This document shows positions 15,011 to 28,086 of a stretch of 64,000 bases of DNA, one piece after another; positions within the stretch are counted from its first letter, which is position 1, and each line of letters opens with the position of its first letter. A model generated the notes under the pieces. The model worked only from the letters and a program-made list of their open reading frames with translations, was not told the origin of the DNA and searched no databases. Source of the stretch: Candidatus Scatomonas sp. (GTDB taxonomy: Bacteria; Bacillota; Clostridia; Lachnospirales; Lachnospiraceae). Both the position numbers and the translations under genes were made by a program. The stretch spans positions 586,441 through 650,440 of the forward strand of contig CAWVDN010000001.1 in the NCBI GenBank assembly GCA_963928055.1, in the 5' to 3' direction.

Positions 15011-15736
15011 TCACATAAAATATCTGCATTGTTCCTCGTAGGATTTCTGTTCTTTCTGGAACAACGCTGTCAACTTACCGACACCCTCTCTTTTGCGGTA
15101 TGATGCCAGTGCGTTCAAATATTCCATCCGATTTTTATCCATAATAATCAAAGGAACCAAACCATTTACCAAACATTCCCGAAACAGAATAAGCCGTCCC
15201 ATCCGTCCGTTTCCATCCTGAAAAGGATGGATGCACTCATAACGTGCGTGAAATTCGGCCAAAACAGATAATGTGGCATCGCAGCTGTGATACCACTGCA
15301 GAAGTTCCTGCATTTTTAACGGAACATCTTCCGGATATACAGTTTCATAGGTTCCGATGATATTCCTCCGTTTTTTGTAATCCCCGATGGCATAACCGTT
15401 TGCCCGATCCTCAAAGACTCCACTTTTCAGCTCAAAATGAAATTGTTTGATCAATTTCTGCGATAATGGCTGATTCAGTGTATCCAGCATATAATTAAAC
15501 ATCAGGAAATGGCCGTTCATTTCTTCCACATCTTTAGCACGGTAAACGTGGGCACTGACGGGTAACGTTCCTGTGTCAAATAATGCAGCGGTCTGCTCTT
15601 CCGTCATAGTTGAACCTTCAATTTTATTTGAATGATAGGCAAAATCCCACTGTGTATAAGCATAGATGCCGGATTTGTCCGATTTTGTTCTTTCAGTGCG
15701 AAATCGCTCCCGAAGGAACTGATTGATTATGTTCAT
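15011..15736 (-). CDS. Fic family protein with an N-terminal autoinhibitory motif (class II type)
   Basis: HPFQDGNGRMGR catalytic motif; SNKIEG matches (S/T)xxxE(G/N). Confidence 0.92.
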   Translation of the reverse strand: MNIINQFLRERFRTERTKSDKSGIYAYTQWDFAYHSNKIEGSTMTEEQTAALFDTGTLPVSAHVYRAKDVEEMNGHFLMFNYMLDTLNQPLSQKLIKQFHFELKSGVFEDRANGYAIGDYKKRRNIIGTYETVYPEDVPLKMQELLQWYHSCDATLSVLAEFHARYECIHPFQDGNGRMGRLILFRECLVNGLVPLIIMDKNRMEYLNALASYRKREGVGKLTALFQKEQKSYEEQCRYFM

Positions 15737-18943: not shown

Positions 18944-21919
18944 TCAGCTGATGATGTACTGGTAAATATCCTCCCGAACCGGAGTGTCCAGATTCCACTC
19001 GATCTCTACTGCCGTCTTGGTGGTGTTGGGCATCTGAAATTCCCGGGTTCGGCCGGTAGCGGCCATTCTTCCCAGGTAATAAAATTCCTTGGAGATCTTG
19101 TCGTCCTTATTCTTCCTCACAAACAGATGAACGTCAATCCCACGCTCCCTGGCGTGCAGGAAGTTCTGAACGTCCTCGGATTCCAGGGACCGGCCGGATT
19201 TGGAAACGGCCATAAGGGTTCCGGTATTGAGGAAATGATCCTCGTACTTGGTGGTGTCGCTGATGTTCTCTTCCTTATGATAATTGATAAAAACCGGAAA
19301 GGTCCTGGTGTTCTTGTCGAATTTGTACCCGCCGATATTCAGGGGCACTTCGTTGTTCTCCCAGTTCAGCAGGCGGCAGACGTCCTCGTAAGTATATTTC
19401 TGATAGAGGACAAATTCCGTATCCTGGTAGCGGAGGCTGAAATTCTGCCGGTACCGGGAAATGCCGAAATCGATAAGCCCCTGCAGAATCTGATAGAATG
19501 CCGGGTTGCCCAGCATGCGGGCAAAGTTACGGGAGATCCCGTACTCCTCCCCTTCCTTCCGGATGAAAACGCAGGTTTCATAGGTTTTCTTTCCGGATCC
19601 GGAAGGAAATTCGTTGGTCATAACATTGACTACATTTTTTCTGGTCTTTTCATCTATGGTAATCCCGTAGTTGTCCCGGAGACTCTTGCTGAGGATCTGC
19701 AAAATCCCATGGCGGTACACCAGCAGACGGTTCAGCATTTCCAGTTCGTGGATCCGTTTGCCTGAGGCCAGCTTCCGGGAGACAAATTCAAGAATCTTCT
19801 CCTCTTCTTTGGACAGGCGCACCGTATATTCCTTCTCGTATTTTACCAGGAACTTGTAGTAAGATCCCAGACTGCTGTTATCAAAAATCCGGCAGACATC
19901 CATTTCCCCGTAGAGGTCAAAATCCTTCAGGGCAGGGATCCGGCCCAGCTTGTATTTCAGATTTGTGTAATTCTCCCGAATCAGCCGGATGTCGCTGAAA
20001 TTGGCGGCGTCAATGGCCGCGAAAATCCGCCGGCGGCTGATCTCGTCGAAATGAATGGTGGACACTCCGGGAATCACCCGGTCTCCCTCCATAACATACC
20101 GGCGCACGTTGTCTTTATTGTAGCTGCGGTCCCCGGAAAGGGCAATGGGGATCAGAAAATTATTTTTATAGTTGCCGATGAAATCCAGGATCACCACAAA
20201 TTCTTTGCCGGGGGATTTCCGAAGTCCCCGGCCCAGCTGCTGGACAAAGACAACAGCAGACTGGGTGGGCCGGAGCATGATCACCTGATTGATCTCCGGA
20301 ATATCCACACCCTCGGAGAAAATATCTACGGTAAAAATATAGTCCAGATAGTCTGCGGTTTCCTTCTGATCCTCCGGCACCTCCATCACCAGGCGCTCAA
20401 TGACTTCCTCCCGGCGGGTCTCGCTGTCCTCTCCAGTGAGGACCTCCGTCCGCAGGCCTCTCTCGTTAAACTTTTTGGAAAGCAGCCGGGCCTCCTCCTT
20501 GCGGCTGCAAAAAACCAGACCTTTGACCCGGTTTCCGCTGTGGCCGTAATAGGACGCCTGTTCCAGCACATAATCCACCCGGTGGTCGCTGACCAGCCGG
20601 TTAAAATCCCGAAAATCCCCCTCCTCATCGCCAATGGCCCGGCCGTCAATGGTAAGATCCGTGATGCCAAAATAGTGGAACGGACAGAGCAGATCCTCCT
20701 CCAATGCCTGCTGCAGACGAATTTCGTAGGCGATGTTATGATCAAAAATCTCATATACATCAAAACGGTTAGTTTCCGGGCTGGCCGTCATGCCCAGCCA
20801 GAAATCCGGCCGGAAATAGTCCATAATCTTCCGGTAGCTTTCCGCGCCGGAATGATGGGCCTCATCCAGGCAGATAACCGTGAACTGCTCCGGAGAAAAA
20901 GCTTCCCGCACGGAATCCCGACTCATCATCTGCATAGTAGCAAAAACCAGATCCGCCTGGCAGATGGATTCCAATTCCCCGGACGTGCGGCCGGAAAGCA
21001 AGGCGTAACGCCAGGGCGAACCGTCGTCCTTCCGGGGGCCAAAGACTTTCTGATAACTGGCCAGTGCCTGCCGGGCAATCTGCTCCCGGTGCACCAGAAA
21101 CAGCACTTTTTTCGGATGCATGTCCCGGAGAGCAAAGGCGGAGGCATAGGTTTTACCGGTTCCGGTGGCAGAAATCAGCAGCGCCCGGCGGGCTCCCTGC
21201 CGCACCAGCTTGCGAATATTTCTCACGAACGCCGTCTGCATGACATTAGGCTGCAGACGGTACTGCTCCAGAGACACCGGTACGGTCTCCCTGGCAACCT
21301 GCTTCTGTTTCTTCACCAGCGCATATCTGACCCGGTAATCCTCAATAAACTCCTCATATGCCAGGCTGTTGGTATCCTCCCAAAGAGAACGAAATTCCTG
21401 AAGAATGTCTCCCACCACTTCTCCGGTTTCCAATCCCACCAACTTGGTGTTCCACTCCCGATTCACCTTCAGAGCACCGGCAGTCATGTTGGCACTGCCA
21501 ATGATGATCCGGTAAATCTCTTCCTTCCGAAAAATATATCCTTTGGTATGAAATCCATCCTTATATCCATGAGTCACAAACATCTTCAGTTCAATATTTT
21601 TCAGGGAATGCAGCTTGTCCAGGGCCGCCGGATCATTAAACGCCAGATAATCCGTGGTGAGAATCTTCCCCGGAATCCCCCTGCGCTCTAATTCTTTCAA
21701 CGTCTGCAATAAGGGGGTAATCCCGCCCAAAGTAATAAACGCCACACTGATATAGAACTCCTGACAATTCAGGAGTTCCTGTTCCACTGCAGAAATCACT
21801 CTCTTGCCCTGACGGTAATCGTTGGAGACAAACTCCGGGCGGTACGCCAGGTTAGAGGGAATAGATTGGTTGATAAAGGCCGTTTCCAGGCCGTGTTGGA
21901 GGTTTGTTTGGTTATTCAT
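18944..21919 (-). CDS. PLD-domain / DExH helicase / DUF3427 protein (putative restriction-like nuclease-helicase)
   Basis: 991 aa; FHTKGY...GSANMT PLD motif, ATGTGKT, DEAHH, QQLGRGLR, DUF3427-type C-terminus. Confidence 0.9.
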   Translation of the reverse strand: MNNQTNLQHGLETAFINQSIPSNLAYRPEFVSNDYRQGKRVISAVEQELLNCQEFYISVAFITLGGITPLLQTLKELERRGIPGKILTTDYLAFNDPAALDKLHSLKNIELKMFVTHGYKDGFHTKGYIFRKEEIYRIIIGSANMTAGALKVNREWNTKLVGLETGEVVGDILQEFRSLWEDTNSLAYEEFIEDYRVRYALVKKQKQVARETVPVSLEQYRLQPNVMQTAFVRNIRKLVRQGARRALLISATGTGKTYASAFALRDMHPKKVLFLVHREQIARQALASYQKVFGPRKDDGSPWRYALLSGRTSGELESICQADLVFATMQMMSRDSVREAFSPEQFTVICLDEAHHSGAESYRKIMDYFRPDFWLGMTASPETNRFDVYEIFDHNIAYEIRLQQALEEDLLCPFHYFGITDLTIDGRAIGDEEGDFRDFNRLVSDHRVDYVLEQASYYGHSGNRVKGLVFCSRKEEARLLSKKFNERGLRTEVLTGEDSETRREEVIERLVMEVPEDQKETADYLDYIFTVDIFSEGVDIPEINQVIMLRPTQSAVVFVQQLGRGLRKSPGKEFVVILDFIGNYKNNFLIPIALSGDRSYNKDNVRRYVMEGDRVIPGVSTIHFDEISRRRIFAAIDAANFSDIRLIRENYTNLKYKLGRIPALKDFDLYGEMDVCRIFDNSSLGSYYKFLVKYEKEYTVRLSKEEEKILEFVSRKLASGKRIHELEMLNRLLVYRHGILQILSKSLRDNYGITIDEKTRKNVVNVMTNEFPSGSGKKTYETCVFIRKEGEEYGISRNFARMLGNPAFYQILQGLIDFGISRYRQNFSLRYQDTEFVLYQKYTYEDVCRLLNWENNEVPLNIGGYKFDKNTRTFPVFINYHKEENISDTTKYEDHFLNTGTLMAVSKSGRSLESEDVQNFLHARERGIDVHLFVRKNKDDKISKEFYYLGRMAATGRTREFQMPNTTKTAVEIEWNLDTPVREDIYQYIIS

Positions 21920-21939: not shown

Positions 21940-22025
21940 ATTTTTAGGGTTTCAATTTTATTATGCGATTTTTTTTTACTCTTTTAAAGTGGTTTTTGCT
22001 CTGCCGAAAAATATATGTAAATAAA

Positions 22026-22147
22026 TAGATCTGTTCCCTAGTACTGGCTGGCACGAGAGGACAGAAAGTACGTCATTTGCCGGGCGGTTCCTCCGACTTG
22101 ATCCACCGCTGTTTTACTCTCTGGAAACGTAGCCGGGAACATATCTA
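22026..22147 (-). other. Long imperfect hairpin in the leader of the helicase gene
   Basis: TAGATCTGTTCCC / GGGAACATATCTA (12 of 13 complementary) with inner GGCT/AGCC, GAGAG/CTCTC and GCGGT/ACCGC stems. Confidence 0.55.
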
Positions 22148-22237
22148 GCCCAATATAAGTGATATATCCCACACATGTCAATACATCTCTATTCCCATCC
22201 ACGCACAAGCGATTTTCTTTTAAAAAACTATTAGAAA

Positions 22238-24265
22238 TCAAAATAGTTTAAATGCTCGCTCTCCAATATTAATTATTTTGGCATCTTCCTCTGGCAAATT
22301 TTCAATGAATTGCTTTAATTCTTCATTATTTAGTGTTATTCCAACAATAACCTGAGCCTCCCCTTCTATGTCAAGTACACTTTGTATTAAACTTTCCATA
22401 TCGGATGTTACAATACTATGTTGTGCTGGCTCATCAAATATTATTATACCTGGGTGATTTCCTCCTTTTACAAGAGAAGTTTGAAGTAATGCTATTGTAA
22501 ATGACCAGATAATTCTAATATTGTCACTCGCAGAAGAATCAAACTTCATATCAAATCCATCAATTAAAGGAAGGCATGTTTCAACAGGAATATCAACAGC
22601 ATCAATATCTGGAGCACTTTTGTACTTATATTTACGAAGATTATTAACAAAGTTATTTTTAAAAGTTTTGATAACTTCAGCATCTAAATCTGAGACTTCT
22701 TTTTTGGGAAGTTTTTCATATTCTTCTTTATATTTTTTCCAACGATCAGAAAGTTTTCTGATTTCTTCTAGTTTCTGGTCTATAAAGGATTGAAGTTGAA
22801 CATATCCTCTAATTTTCGACTCAATTTCTACAAATTTTTGTACGACAAATTCTGACCATTCTGTTTCAGTAGAATAAATATCCGAACGAATTGTCTGTGC
22901 AAGGCGTCGCAAAGTTACCAGCCGTGATTGTAAATCATTTTCGACTAGTGAAAGTTGCTCTATATTTGTTTTGTGACTATCACGTGTAAACTCAAGAACG
23001 CTTTTCTGTCCTTCTAAGTGTCGAATATTTTCTTCGATACTCATAATTGGGATATCATTACCAAAATGCAAGAGAGAATCCTCAATTTTTTGATTGCATG
23101 TCGGACAAATATTTTTTGCAATCTTACATCCTATTGCAGAACCCATACTTTGCAATTTTGCCGCATCTTTATTATTTCTTAAATCACGAATAACTATTTC
23201 AAGGCTTCGCTCAGCTTGAGTAACCGCACTACGTGACAAGGTAATTTGTTCATGACATTCAGAAGCTTTCTGTTCAAAAGAATCTATTGTTTCAGATATT
23301 GTTTGCAACTCCTTATTTAAATCATCAAAATTATCAATATTCCTAGGTTTAAGACATTTAATCGAATCATGCTCGTCTTGTAATTCTAAGATAGCATCTT
23401 CAAGAGATTTTTTATCAACTGTTGTTACGGCAATAGCTTTATAATCGTTATCACTCATAATTTTAGGTTGTATAGGTAATCCACTAACTGAGCAAGATTC
23501 ATGGGTTGCATTTCGATTTATATCATCAAATATGTTTTTCCATTCACTAATAATTGCATTCTTTACGGATTTAAGTCTATTCTTTTCTCTCTCATTTTTA
23601 AATGTATCTAAACCTAGTAAAAATTCTACAACTCGCTTTTTGGCATCCTTAATTCCGAAATATGGCATCCCTGAAAAAATATCACCCCAGCCATGTTTCT
23701 GCTCAATGAATAAGCCTGAAAAAATCACTTGTAAATATAGTTTTTGATTATTACCGTTTGTTTGTACCAAAGGTAGTTGAATATGCAGAAATGATTCTAA
23801 AAACGAGTGGAACCCTTTTTCATTAGTTGCTGCACCTCCATCATGAATATACATATCTTCTGGTTGCGTACTTTGATTTCCAATAGAATCATAATCACCA
23901 TAATATACAGTAACAAGTCGTGGATCCCTTGTTTCCATTTTTGCAGATCTATATATAGTTACAATTTCATTACCATTAGATATTTCCAAGTATGCCCCTG
24001 ACTCTAAAACATTCCAATCCTTATCCCCATCATGAATTACTGACTTATATACAGAAGTGAGAACTTTTTGATTTCTTCCTCCAATAATTTCTTCAAAACC
24101 AAGACAGTAAAAAATTGCTTCAAGCACAGAACTTTTACCAGCAGTATTACTATTACTAGCAATAAATGTTAACCCACTGGAAAATTTTTCATCAAAACCA
24201 TAAATTCCTTCATTTTCCTCATTGGCTGTTTTAATTTCAATGCGAAGACGATTTATTCTCAGCAT
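22238..24265 (-). CDS. SMC/Rad50-like ABC ATPase (Lamassu LmuB-like / ABC-3C ATPase)
   Basis: 675 aa; NTAGKSS Walker A, FIEQ Q-loop, coiled coils with a central CPTC zinc hook, SASDNIRIIW signature, IIFDEP Walker B. Confidence 0.85.
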   Translation of the reverse strand: MLRINRLRIEIKTANEENEGIYGFDEKFSSGLTFIASNSNTAGKSSVLEAIFYCLGFEEIIGGRNQKVLTSVYKSVIHDGDKDWNVLESGAYLEISNGNEIVTIYRSAKMETRDPRLVTVYYGDYDSIGNQSTQPEDMYIHDGGAATNEKGFHSFLESFLHIQLPLVQTNGNNQKLYLQVIFSGLFIEQKHGWGDIFSGMPYFGIKDAKKRVVEFLLGLDTFKNEREKNRLKSVKNAIISEWKNIFDDINRNATHESCSVSGLPIQPKIMSDNDYKAIAVTTVDKKSLEDAILELQDEHDSIKCLKPRNIDNFDDLNKELQTISETIDSFEQKASECHEQITLSRSAVTQAERSLEIVIRDLRNNKDAAKLQSMGSAIGCKIAKNICPTCNQKIEDSLLHFGNDIPIMSIEENIRHLEGQKSVLEFTRDSHKTNIEQLSLVENDLQSRLVTLRRLAQTIRSDIYSTETEWSEFVVQKFVEIESKIRGYVQLQSFIDQKLEEIRKLSDRWKKYKEEYEKLPKKEVSDLDAEVIKTFKNNFVNNLRKYKYKSAPDIDAVDIPVETCLPLIDGFDMKFDSSASDNIRIIWSFTIALLQTSLVKGGNHPGIIIFDEPAQHSIVTSDMESLIQSVLDIEGEAQVIVGITLNNEELKQFIENLPEEDAKIINIGERAFKLF

Positions 24266-24743
24266 ATGTGTTCCTCCAAATATCTGACAGTTGTTTTATC
24301 TTATTATCTGTCAATTTTTTTGACAAAAGCGAAAGTGCTATCTTCTCTGCAGTAAATATTTCTGATTTGTTATCTATTTCTGATACAAGTTCTTGGCCTT
24401 TGTCTGTCAAAACATATTTTCCGTTTTTCCCTTGAAAAATCAATTCATCTGCTATTGCAAAAGTTACTGCTCTATTTACCGCTGGATCAAAACGAATAAT
24501 GGGAGGCGAAGCAAAGTCATATTGTACATAATCTAATAGCCTGTCCATTGCTTCTTTCGAGCAAAGCGCAAAAGATATAATATGTAGTTTTATTGGCAAA
24601 CAACCAGACTTACCCCAACATGATTTTGCAATAATAAAGCATATCTGCGAAACTTTATAACTGATACGATAATTATATGGCACAGCATCTGGTTTGGCAT
24701 CAAACACAATATCCCTATTTTCAATTAAATTTTGTCTATTCAA
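24237..24743 (-). CDS. Middle component (LmuC-like / ABC-3C MC)
   Basis: 168 aa between the effector and the ATPase, overlapping the ATPase start; C-terminal winged-helix-like YVLTDKG. Confidence 0.7.
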   Translation of the reverse strand: MNRQNLIENRDIVFDAKPDAVPYNYRISYKVSQICFIIAKSCWGKSGCLPIKLHIISFALCSKEAMDRLLDYVQYDFASPPIIRFDPAVNRAVTFAIADELIFQGKNGKYVLTDKGQELVSEIDNKSEIFTAEKIALSLLSKKLTDNKIKQLSDIWRNTYAENKSSSH

Positions 24744-24754
24744 AATACTCTCAC

Positions 24755-25714
24755 CTACATTCTAAATTCCATTGAGCAATCTGCCAACCAACTTGCAACT
24801 AAATCTTGTTTAAGTTCCCCAATTGAAGCCAAACTAATTGTTGTAGAGAATTGTTCTTTAAGCTTTTTTTCAAAATCATCAAGCAATTCACCAAACAAAC
24901 GTGCATTACCTGAGTGTTCAGATATTAATCTCGTCTTAACAGCAACATCTTTTTTACAACTCTGTTCTAATTCAATTAGCGATTCATGTATTTCCGGAAA
25001 ATTCAGTCTCAACTTATTTAATATTGCTAATCCACTAAGATAAGATTCTATATAATGATTCACTAGAAAAACAACATCTATATCCTCATCGTTATTAGTG
25101 TTTTTTATGGCTTTTATTTTTCGTTTTATATTGTTAACTTTTTCAGAATCACATTTCGTATAGTCAAGCTCAACTGCATCTCTTATCGCCAAATTTAAAA
25201 GATAATCTTTATGAGGAGCAAGAACTATCCTGCTAATTTCCAATAAAAAATCTTCTGCACACTTTATGATAACTTTAAAGTCATCGTCAATATTTGTATA
25301 AACAGTAGGATTTGCCTTCTTAGCGGCTAATACTTCCTTTCTTTTAGTCTCAGCATGTTTTACAATACGAGAGTCCTTTTGTTCGGGTATAACAAAATGC
25401 CATTCTTTAATTGGTGGTACACCCCACTCTTTAAGTTTCTTTATATAATCGGGTTTCAAAAGTTTTCCGATATCCTTTGTCATTTTATCACGCATATGCG
25501 TGTAATTATCTTCATCTGAATAGTCTTTCTCTGGACAATAGCATTGATGAACAATTCCATTTTGAGTAAATCCTTCGATTCCTCCATCGCCTCCCTGAGC
25601 CGCAGAAATGGGTGTATAATGCTCATTTTGATATCTCATACGATAACACATTACACACAATTCCTCCCATGCATTGCCGTTCATGTATCCCTCAATAAAT
25701 TGTAAAACACTCAT
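24755..25714 (-). CDS. Effector with an N-terminal PD-(D/E)xK-like endonuclease domain and a helical C-terminal domain (LmuA-like)
   Basis: 319 aa; WEELC...GGDGGIEGF...HQCY. Confidence 0.75.
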   Translation of the reverse strand: MSVLQFIEGYMNGNAWEELCVMCYRMRYQNEHYTPISAAQGGDGGIEGFTQNGIVHQCYCPEKDYSDEDNYTHMRDKMTKDIGKLLKPDYIKKLKEWGVPPIKEWHFVIPEQKDSRIVKHAETKRKEVLAAKKANPTVYTNIDDDFKVIIKCAEDFLLEISRIVLAPHKDYLLNLAIRDAVELDYTKCDSEKVNNIKRKIKAIKNTNNDEDIDVVFLVNHYIESYLSGLAILNKLRLNFPEIHESLIELEQSCKKDVAVKTRLISEHSGNARLFGELLDDFEKKLKEQFSTTISLASIGELKQDLVASWLADCSMEFRM

Positions 25715-25920
25715 TTATTTTCTCCTCCAAAAAGCCTTAACGATATAGTATTGACAAAATCAGGCTTCCTAGTCAACGTACATTTATCAACACAAACTGA
25801 ATACTTCCCTGATAAATCCTTTATTTTTACAAGATGGAAAAAGTCTAAAACATCTATAACTATTACTTCTCTATGCATATAATAGCACTTTTCACCTATT
25901 CTAGGGAGATATTCCGCCAT
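25711..25920 (-). CDS. 69-aa hypothetical protein translationally coupled to the effector gene
   Basis: GGGAGG RBS; its TGA overlaps the effector ATG (ATGA). Confidence 0.7.
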   Translation of the reverse strand: MAEYLPRIGEKCYYMHREVIVIDVLDFFHLVKIKDLSGKYSVCVDKCTLTRKPDFVNTISLRLFGGENK

Positions 25921-26021
25921 AGCACCATCCTCCCTCTATGTATTGTCATGTAAATACATTTTCTCTACACCCTCTGCTATTTTTTATAGCCACTTGTATG
26001 TACAAGGCTTTCTGTTTATCA

Positions 26022-26252
26022 TCAACATTCTCTATTAGATATCTGTATATAACTACCATCCTCTATTATGAATCTCTGCTCAAACGTGACACCTAGTACG
26101 TCTGCAATAATAATCATTTCCTCCACACTGACAGTCCCACGTTGTAACTTCTTATTAAAGTTCTGCGGTGATTGGCCAATTTTCCGGGCAAGCTCTGAGA
26201 TACTGATATTCATTTTTTCACAAAGTTCCCGAATCATATCAGATGTTGTCAT
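26022..26252 (-). CDS. Xre-family HTH protein
   Basis: MTTSDMIRELCEKMNISISELARKIGQSPQNF; GGAGG RBS. Confidence 0.85.
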   Translation of the reverse strand: MTTSDMIRELCEKMNISISELARKIGQSPQNFNKKLQRGTVSVEEMIIIADVLGVTFEQRFIIEDGSYIQISNREC

Positions 26253-26330
26253 TTTTACTCCTCCATACCTTTTATTATAAACCATATGGTTGCTAAACGC
26301 AATCCATCATTCCTTTATTCTATTTCCCAC

Positions 26331-26371
26331 AAAAAGACATCCTACAAGTCCGCTTGAACTTATAGGATGTC
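26331..26371 (-). terminator. Rho-independent terminator after the recombinase gene
   Basis: GACATCCTATAAG-loop-CTTGTAGGATGTC followed by TTTTT. Confidence 0.8.
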
Positions 26372-27920: not shown

Positions 27921-28086
27921 CCTCTCACCTCTCTCTGCAGGAAGCTGTCTTCCTTACATGTCACAGGCAAAAAAAAGAAAGGATTTTTACCCTCTCCAAA
28001 AAAATTTTTCAATATTTTTACCAGATAAAATCACGATACATAGTAAATTTTACGACATAAAAAGGCCGGTGGATTTCTCCATCAGC

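Follow-up and report, generated by a model that had tools for sequence, protein, structure and literature searches.

A conserved small gene translationally coupled to the LmuA effector gene of Lamassu cassettes in Bacillota

Lamassu is reported in about 10% of prokaryotic genomes and is among the commonest of the defence systems based on structural maintenance of chromosomes (SMC) proteins, and structural work has portrayed it as a two- or three-protein machine. In the type II or 'Lamassu-like' systems (ABC-3C; for example DdmABC of Vibrio cholerae) an effector, a middle component and an SMC-like ATPase (LmuA, LmuC and LmuB) are encoded in that order within a tightly packed operon. According to published Lamassu work, LmuA needs to be restrained on LmuB/LmuC up to the point at which DNA ends are detected, and how the toxic effector is kept silent and then released is a current question. 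Here we describe a Lamassu locus in a 64,000-nucleotide stretch of a Candidatus Scatomonas sp. genome (Lachnospiraceae; contig CAWVDN010000001.1, positions 586,441 to 650,440), referred to below as the window. Its membership of Lamassu is clear, as LmuA, LmuC and LmuB are all matched by PADLOC profiles and stand in the canonical gene order, and LmuB has additional weak matches to SMC_N, AAA_23 and Rad50/SMC. The locus shares its gene order and tight packing with the described systems; however, whereas the published systems have two or three genes, there is here a fourth, a conserved gene for a protein of 69 aa that lies directly before LmuA and is translationally coupled to it (Table 1).

The initial annotation of the window, made from its letters alone, had seen here an extra small gene coupled to the effector, and had proposed a four-gene Lamassu variant with an undescribed accessory subunit. 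Its description of the junctions is borne out. The small open reading frame (ORF) is preceded by the ribosome-binding site GGGAGGA, 7 nt before its ATG; its stop codon and the LmuA start codon overlap as ATGA; and the GGAGGAG of the effector lies inside the last codons of the small ORF. The gene for an Xre regulator, on the same strand, ends exactly 101 bp upstream. There are three main lines of evidence that the small ORF is a genuine gene linked to Lamassu, a conclusion about which we have very little doubt.

The first is its position in other genomes. Loci around LmuA homologues (42–100% identity) were taken from one genome per GTDB species (n = 80), and all six frames of these loci were scanned with a hidden Markov model (HMM) of the small family. 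In 74 of the 80 loci, and in 10 of 10 loci on IMG/VR contigs, a same-strand homologue of the small ORF ends at the LmuA start or runs into it, so that 84 of 90 related loci retain the small gene immediately ahead of LmuA; co-occurrence with effector homologues was the check that the initial annotation had asked for. The loci bearing the small gene come from Clostridia, Paenibacillus, Cohnella, Sporomusa, Lysinibacillus, Ornithinibacillus, Sporolactobacillus and others. The distance from the stop of the small ORF to the start of LmuA is −4 in 30 loci, −8 in eight and −1 in seven, and is small in nearly all of the remainder, so the stop/start overlap on which translational coupling had been proposed is itself conserved; relatives also have a GGAGG-like site at the matching place before the small ORF. 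On contigs carrying diverse members of the family the small gene stands directly before a 319–320-aa LmuA, followed by LmuC and LmuB, and LmuC sits between LmuA and LmuB in related loci. The Clostridium plasmid pCBG, with an LmuA that is only 40% identical, has in the corresponding place a 72-aa RefSeq 'hypothetical protein' that scores 5e-17 against the family HMM. Conversely, of the 106 representative clusters of the small protein described below, 51 share at least 50% identity with an LmuA-adjacent small ORF and another 51 share 35–50%. The small gene is the norm for one Bacillota clade of this LmuA type and not an add-on of the window locus. The 'extra' gene of the initial annotation is therefore present and coupled, but is not peculiar to this locus, since 84 of 90 related loci carry it.

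The second line of evidence is conservation of the encoded protein. A search of 5.8 billion proteins returned 20 clusters at 68–99% identity, 15 of which are exactly 69 aa and all of which are unnamed metagenomic proteins, and a profile search of 1.84 billion representative proteins returned 106 clusters (formed at 50% identity; E-values up to 1e-3), nearly all of 60–80 aa and matching end to end. Length and hydrophobic pattern are retained down to about 30% identity, and throughout the family the hydrophobic pattern goes together with an Asp that is the only nearly invariant residue (D45 of the window protein) and with the C-terminal motif S-I-S-L-x-L-L-G-G. Among six loci the ratio of non-synonymous to synonymous substitution rates (dN/dS; Nei-Gojobori) of the small ORF is 0.15–0.38 in divergent pairs, and the small ORF is therefore under purifying selection. 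The corresponding values for LmuA in the same loci are 0.04–0.07, the small protein evolving several times faster; none of the other cassette proteins diverges as fast (mean p-distance 0.66 for the small protein versus 0.39–0.50).

These features bear on the simplest account of the coupling, which is that the ORF is a leader whose translation sets the amount of LmuA and whose peptide has no function. The ATGA overlap, the location of the LmuA ribosome-binding site inside the ORF, and the conservation of the overlap or abutment would all be expected of such a leader. It nonetheless seems very improbable, as a functionless peptide would not be under purifying selection at the protein level, would not keep its length, hydrophobic pattern, near-invariant Asp and tail motif over 106 clusters, and would have neither a predicted barrel fold nor domain relatives away from LmuA (see below). 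A programmed frameshift fusing the small ORF to LmuA was also considered and rejected: there is no slippery heptamer, and the length of the overlap differs between loci.

The third line of evidence is that the small gene shares the history of the LmuA, LmuC and LmuB genes. Its GC content is 0.319 (0.26 at third codon positions), close to the 0.32–0.33 of LmuA, LmuB and LmuC, compared with 0.377 for the Xre gene, 0.513 for the serine recombinase gene that precedes it, and 0.55–0.60 for the flanking chromosome. Between loci, the small protein diverges in step with LmuA, LmuB and LmuC (r 0.82–0.86 for pairwise distances), from which it follows that the small gene has been inherited with the cassette. 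The upstream neighbour is in contrast variable, being an OLD-nuclease/UvrD-helicase pair, a Fic gene, a PIN gene, a recombinase plus Xre, or others, and the proposal of a four-gene variant is strongly supported by the finding in 84 of 90 loci that the small gene travels with LmuA-LmuC-LmuB whatever adjoins it. It could be argued that the gene is an independent hitch-hiker beside Lamassu, either a separate small defence or anti-defence gene or part of a recombinase/Xre element, because the window cassette, in an island of low GC, has genes for a serine recombinase and Xre beside it. However, the small gene stays with LmuA where recombinase and Xre are absent, it overlaps the LmuA start, its composition matches that of LmuACB and not that of the recombinase, and it co-diverges with all three Lamassu proteins; we accordingly regard a hitch-hiker as hardly credible. 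No fusion of the small protein to LmuA, LmuB or LmuC is found among the 1.84 billion representative proteins, which fits a partner that needs to stay separate. An apparent LmuA-LmuC fusion in related locus L008 (393–1853, a 486-aa gene call) contains an in-frame TAG and is a gene-calling artefact.

No annotation or described component accounts for the small protein. The window protein has no Pfam, PHROG or NCBIfam match and no credible PADLOC match (a PADLOC AbiA match with an E-value of 0.0046 over 38 residues was treated as noise), Pfam assigns no family to any of 65 members tested, and all members that bear a database name are 'hypothetical' or 'uncharacterized'. A profile search of Protein Data Bank (PDB) sequences gave chance-level matches only and no solved structure. 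No fourth Lamassu gene was found described in the literature, with a passing mention in Krishnan et al. 2020 (ABC-3C) being possible. Literature searches likewise found no 'LmuD' and no connection between Lamassu and Tudor domains. The suggestion of an undescribed subunit thus agrees with a protein that has neither family assignment nor name, in a system published as having two or three genes.

The predicted structure is that of a small barrel with a tail. An AlphaFold2 model built from 20 sequences (predicted local distance difference test score, pLDDT, 74.8) has strands at residues 11–14, 17–25, 30–35 and 41–45 and a short bridge, forming a putative barrel at approximately residues 10–50, beyond which the tail is of low confidence from about residue 55 and has pLDDT below 50 from residue 60. 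The best Foldseek matches in the PDB are to the Tudor/SH3-like barrels of SMN, SPF30, TDRD3 and SGF29; these are weak, with E-values of 0.02–0.3 and template modelling (TM) scores of 0.58–0.65 over 50–60 residues, and at 7–20% sequence identity they indicate a resemblance of fold only, no homology being demonstrated. The viral fold library BFVD yielded, with weak E-values, only unnamed small phage barrels. An SH3/KOW-like barrel had been guessed from the pattern of residues, and the model and the weak Tudor/SH3-like matches agree with that guess. The C-terminal tail, disordered in the model of the protein alone, reads NTISLRLFGG in the window protein and carries in the family a conserved, amphipathic motif, SISLxLL(GG), of which SISLxLL lies upstream of the Gly-Gly codons that carry the LmuA ribosome-binding site. 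The family is acidic to neutral (median isoelectric point 5.7, mean net charge −0.3) and the small protein is without enzymatic features.

The adjoining effector is likewise without a structural match. The AlphaFold2 model of LmuA has two domains, an alpha/beta N-terminal domain and a helical C-terminal domain, and the former has an alpha-beta-beta-beta-alpha-beta topology together with an invariant GDxGIEG…QCYCPE motif. On the basis of this modelled topology and the motif, the N-terminal domain looks like that of a restriction endonuclease. LmuA has no Pfam family and no significant match by Foldseek against the PDB or by profile search of PDB sequences, and this LmuA type matches none of the published solved LmuA proteins by sequence or fold search.

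What does the small protein do? We tentatively propose that it is a dispensable regulatory subunit that binds LmuA, antitoxin-like or holdase-like, a reading whose chances we put at close to even. Made just before LmuA and in step with it by virtue of translational coupling, the small protein would bind free LmuA, its tail probably adding a strand or docking in a groove, and LmuA would be kept harmless or assembly-competent until loaded on the LmuB2-LmuC sensor. The small protein would act by protein-protein contact as a safety catch, whether antitoxin-like or holdase-like, and would be an added layer and not a core subunit, because several lineages have lost the gene. Restraining newly made LmuA in such a way, as a holdase or safety catch, would answer the published need for LmuA silencing. 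Inhibition in particular may be favoured, indirectly and by analogy, by the gene order and overlap reminiscent of type II toxin-antitoxin systems, by the fast evolution of the small protein, by a phage-associated relative (P0164, described below), and by that same published silencing.

There are several points of likeness to type II toxin-antitoxin systems. The gene for a small protein comes first and runs into the start of the gene for a potentially toxic, nuclease-like effector, and the small protein has a folded beta domain followed by a conserved, disordered C-terminal tail and evolves faster than its partner. Type II antitoxins such as MazE of MazE-MazF have a folded beta domain with a disordered toxin-binding tail, and the similarity is one of resemblance and not of membership. 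There are also differences. No antitoxin-type DNA-binding domain (ribbon-helix-helix, RHH; helix-turn-helix, HTH; AbrB/SpoVT; or Phd) is detected in the small protein, the small gene has been lost several times with LmuA retained, and the effector is part of a larger sensor complex. With no such DNA-binding domain and with the toxin retained where the small gene is lost, the small protein is therefore not to be filed as a type II antitoxin.

A few family members that match more weakly or are longer are found outside Lamassu. In P0164 (L096 254–829, 191 aa) a Lar restriction-alleviation domain (PF14354, 3.9e-15) precedes a tail-less barrel that is 45% identical to residues 5–53 of the window protein; the gene is flanked on both sides by genes for phage-type DNA methyltransferases, and only one metagenomic contig, of 952 bp, carries it. 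To judge from its sequence and setting, P0164 is a possible phage-borne mimic of the Lamassu small protein. P0237 is located in a phage-like region, and P0219, with an N-terminus resembling a zinc ribbon, has no Lamassu genes beside it. The small protein and LmuA have no tblastn match in 50,697 phage genomes, and a scan of IMG/VR with the close-clade alignment found no stand-alone small ORF. One speculative extension, which we think doubtful, is that the barrel is an LmuA off-switch that clamps through its tail and is displaced when foreign DNA is detected by LmuB/LmuC, and that phages have captured tail-less barrels such as that of P0164 to keep LmuA locked. If this were true, P0164-type proteins would be anti-Lamassu proteins derived from the system's own regulator. 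A separate protein, P0020 (L014 123–467, 114 aa), combines approximately the first 31 residues of the small protein with part of an ABC transporter, has no Lamassu genes in its vicinity, and is probably from a chimeric scaffold or a deletion remnant.

Several observations weigh against a role for the small protein in controlling LmuA. First, at six of the 80 loci the DNA preceding LmuA is entirely non-coding. The LmuA proteins of these six nest among those of relatives that bear the small gene, so there have been at least four independent losses, and they keep all or all but one of 41 invariant residues; with LmuA intact after such losses, LmuA is not strictly dependent on the small protein. 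The three-gene core can persist without the small gene, and a strict antitoxin role is unlikely. Second, the small gene was not found beside LmuA homologues of 27–30% identity (on Priestia and Burkholderia plasmids). Third, in mirror-tree partial correlations LmuA does not stand out from LmuB and LmuC as the partner of the small protein. Fourth, the assignment of the predicted fold as a Tudor/SH3-like barrel is weak (Foldseek E-value about 0.02, TM score about 0.6, pLDDT 75). Finally, no further relatives of P0164 were found in IMG/VR or among the 5.8 billion proteins.

Some of these same features could point to a different kind of component, a phage-sensing or specificity subunit or a decoy, in which the barrel would either recognise some phage protein or nucleic-acid feature and relay this to LmuA or LmuBC, or serve as what phage anti-Lamassu proteins attack. 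The small protein is the most rapidly diverging of the cassette, its gene is dispensable in some lineages, and barrel relatives are present in phage-like gene neighbourhoods. Moreover, between close relatives the changes mostly alter the protein: the small ORFs of the window and of L004 (8001–8210) differ at 19 positions, 15 non-synonymous and four synonymous (dN/dS about 1), compared with a dN/dS of 0.04 for LmuA. The contrast between these two loci suggests either that parts of the cassette have recombined or that the small protein is undergoing diversifying change. The counts behind the ratio of about 1 are small, however, and the lower dS of the small ORF (0.10, against 0.42 for the adjoining LmuA) points to recombination over selection; furthermore, published Lamassu structures put DNA-end sensing in LmuB/LmuC. 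We consider a sensor or decoy unlikely, though it is the foremost of the alternatives, being followed in falling likelihood by a DNA-binding autoregulator, a leader ORF and a hitch-hiker.

The DNA ahead of the small gene provides a setting for the autoregulator, in which the first-gene product would repress the cassette by binding an inverted repeat upstream of its own ribosome-binding site. The window has such a repeat, ATGTATT-N8-AATACAT, a candidate operator or 5′ untranslated region (UTR) hairpin. It is kept in four of five Xre-bearing relatives compared and is degenerate in L013, and other loci have different repeats or none. Within the 82 nt upstream of the ribosome-binding site of the small ORF, inverted repeats with arms of at least 6 are present in 42% of 64 loci versus 27 ± 6% in shuffles, and those with arms of at least 7 in 19% versus 8 ± 3%, a modest enrichment. 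The place of the small gene as the first of the cassette is in keeping with a repressor, and some SH3-like barrels bind DNA. On the other side, the protein is acidic to neutral rather than basic in character, there is no HTH, RHH or AbrB signature by Pfam in the 65 members, the repeats differ between loci and many loci are without any, a separate HTH regulator upstream in a minority of loci would be redundant, and a repressor needs no tight translational coupling to LmuA. An autoregulator is thus improbable, somewhat more so than a sensor. Control of LmuA by direct contact is the reading that we continue to favour.

If the small subunit does regulate the effector, be it as an inhibitor, a loading factor or a specificity element, it would offer a new handle on effector control in Lamassu. 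There are also practical consequences, in that a genuine component of these operons goes unrecognised by defence-finding tools such as PADLOC and by the annotation libraries searched, and in that cloning 'LmuACB' without the small gene may mislead as to toxicity or defence.

It was further suggested in the initial annotation that the system is possibly under Xre control. As a feature of the system this does not stand, and it could apply at most to the lineage of the window. The Xre gene product, which also matches PHROG transcriptional regulator and repressor families, is of a type found only in the closest relatives of the window (L004–L006, L013, L017 and L022), and an iterative HMM search of the 1.5 kb preceding the small gene detected a Cro/C1-type HTH ORF of any kind at only 14 of 84 loci; some ten of them lie immediately upstream on the same strand, and they are of several types and sizes. 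Xre is a lineage-specific neighbour and not part of the conserved cassette. There is some similarity to CapH of the cyclic-oligonucleotide-based anti-phage signalling systems (CBASS) and to the C-proteins of restriction-modification systems, as a 76-aa Cro/C1-type HTH gene with its own putative promoter and a palindrome in the promoter spacer lies directly upstream on the same strand. Unlike in those systems, an HTH gene is present in a minority of related cassettes and belongs to several types, and the promoter palindrome is not repeated before the small gene. An Xre operator at the small gene was accordingly rejected, as the palindrome AACCATATGGTT occurs only in the Xre promoter.

Within the lineage of the window, Xre with its own putative promoter probably heads the transcript. 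Its likely start is the ATG at 26252, which has GGAGGAG ahead of it and agrees with the gene call in relatives, and the putative promoter is conserved in L004, L013, L017 and L022. There is no convincing promoter in the 101-bp spacer between Xre and the small ORF. The hairpin GCCTTGTACATACAAGTGGC (25960–26010) in this spacer has no T run and is not a canonical terminator. Chicken-gut metatranscriptome contigs give even coverage of the locus, and one of them runs from the 3′ half of Xre through the small ORF into the start of LmuA; this fits co-transcription of Xre, small ORF and LmuA, as weak evidence given that assembled contigs may contain DNA.

Table 1. Features of the Lamassu locus and the DNA upstream of it. 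Coordinates are positions in the 64,000-nt window, and the order of transcription is recombinase, Xre, small ORF, LmuA, LmuC, LmuB.
Feature	Position	Strand	Remarks
Large serine recombinase	27920–26382	minus	512 aa; Pfam Resolvase, Recombinase, Zn_ribbon_recom; context, outside the system
Intrinsic-terminator-like hairpin	26371–26336	minus	16-bp stem and T run; directly after recombinase, before Xre gene
Putative Xre promoter	26302–26274	minus	TTGCGT, 17 nt, TATAAT; consensus match only
Palindrome AACCATATGGTT	26280–26291		Within spacer of putative Xre promoter
Xre/Cro-C1-type HTH regulator	26252–26022	minus	76 aa; HTH_26 1e-10, HTH_3 1e-6 (Pfam)
Imperfect hairpin GCCTTGTACATACAAGTGGC	25960–26010	minus	Just past Xre stop; conserved
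Inverted repeat ATGTATT-N8-AATACAT (7-N8-7)	25938–25959		−39 to −18 of small ORF ATG; candidate operator or 5′-UTR hairpin
Small ORF ribosome-binding site GGGAGGA	25934–25928	minus	7 nt before its ATG
Small ORF	25920–25711	minus	69 aa, ATG start; first cistron of four-gene cassette
LmuA ribosome-binding site GGAGGAG	25728–25722	minus	Inside small ORF final codons GGA GGA GAA (Gly-Gly-Glu); 7 nt before LmuA ATG
ATGA overlap	25711–25714		Small ORF TGA stop (25713–25711) over LmuA ATG (25714–25712)
LmuA effector	25714–24755	minus	319 aa; PADLOC LmuA PDLC03852 5.6e-30
LmuC middle component	24743–24237	minus	168 aa; PADLOC LmuC PDLC03871 6.3e-22
LmuB SMC/Rad50-like ABC ATPase	24265–22238	minus	675 aa; PADLOC LmuB PDLC03863 2.9e-104, residues 1–643

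The cassette is located in one of two low-GC stretches (0.32–0.40), at 22000–26340 and 28000–31100, within a chromosome of 0.50–0.60 GC, the two being parted by the serine recombinase gene (0.51 GC). The low-GC DNA ends beside a tRNA/rRNA U5-methyltransferase gene (31165–32325), and the same gene flanks the related island in L004; this flank looks like a recurrent insertion hot spot. Homologues of the recombinase are present upstream of the cassette, on the same strand, in several unrelated genomes (L020, L029, L030, L032, L062, L073, L081 and L095), and the cassette may often travel as cargo of recombinase-borne elements.

The second low-GC stretch contains a group of minus-strand genes at 28134–29865. 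An HTH_3 gene (29431–29865) is followed by a 96-aa Peptidase_M78/IrrE fragment (29148–29438) that ends right after HExxH, and then by a 309-aa Fic-domain ORF, the N-terminus of which matches the capP peptidase profile (PADLOC PDC-S04/SoFic matches). The arrangement resembles a module of an HTH gene and a peptidase-Fic gene, the latter interrupted by a stop or a frameshift. In L007, the gene immediately before the small ORF is an intact Fic gene of 348 aa. Directly downstream of LmuB in the window is a gene on the minus strand (18944–21919) with a host-like GC content of 0.52, encoding a 991-aa protein with a phospholipase D (PLD)-like nuclease, a ResIII/DEAD helicase and DUF3427, which is likely a further defence gene. 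A second Fic/DOC-family protein, of 241 aa (Pfam Fic 4.2e-16), is encoded on the minus strand at 15011–15736.

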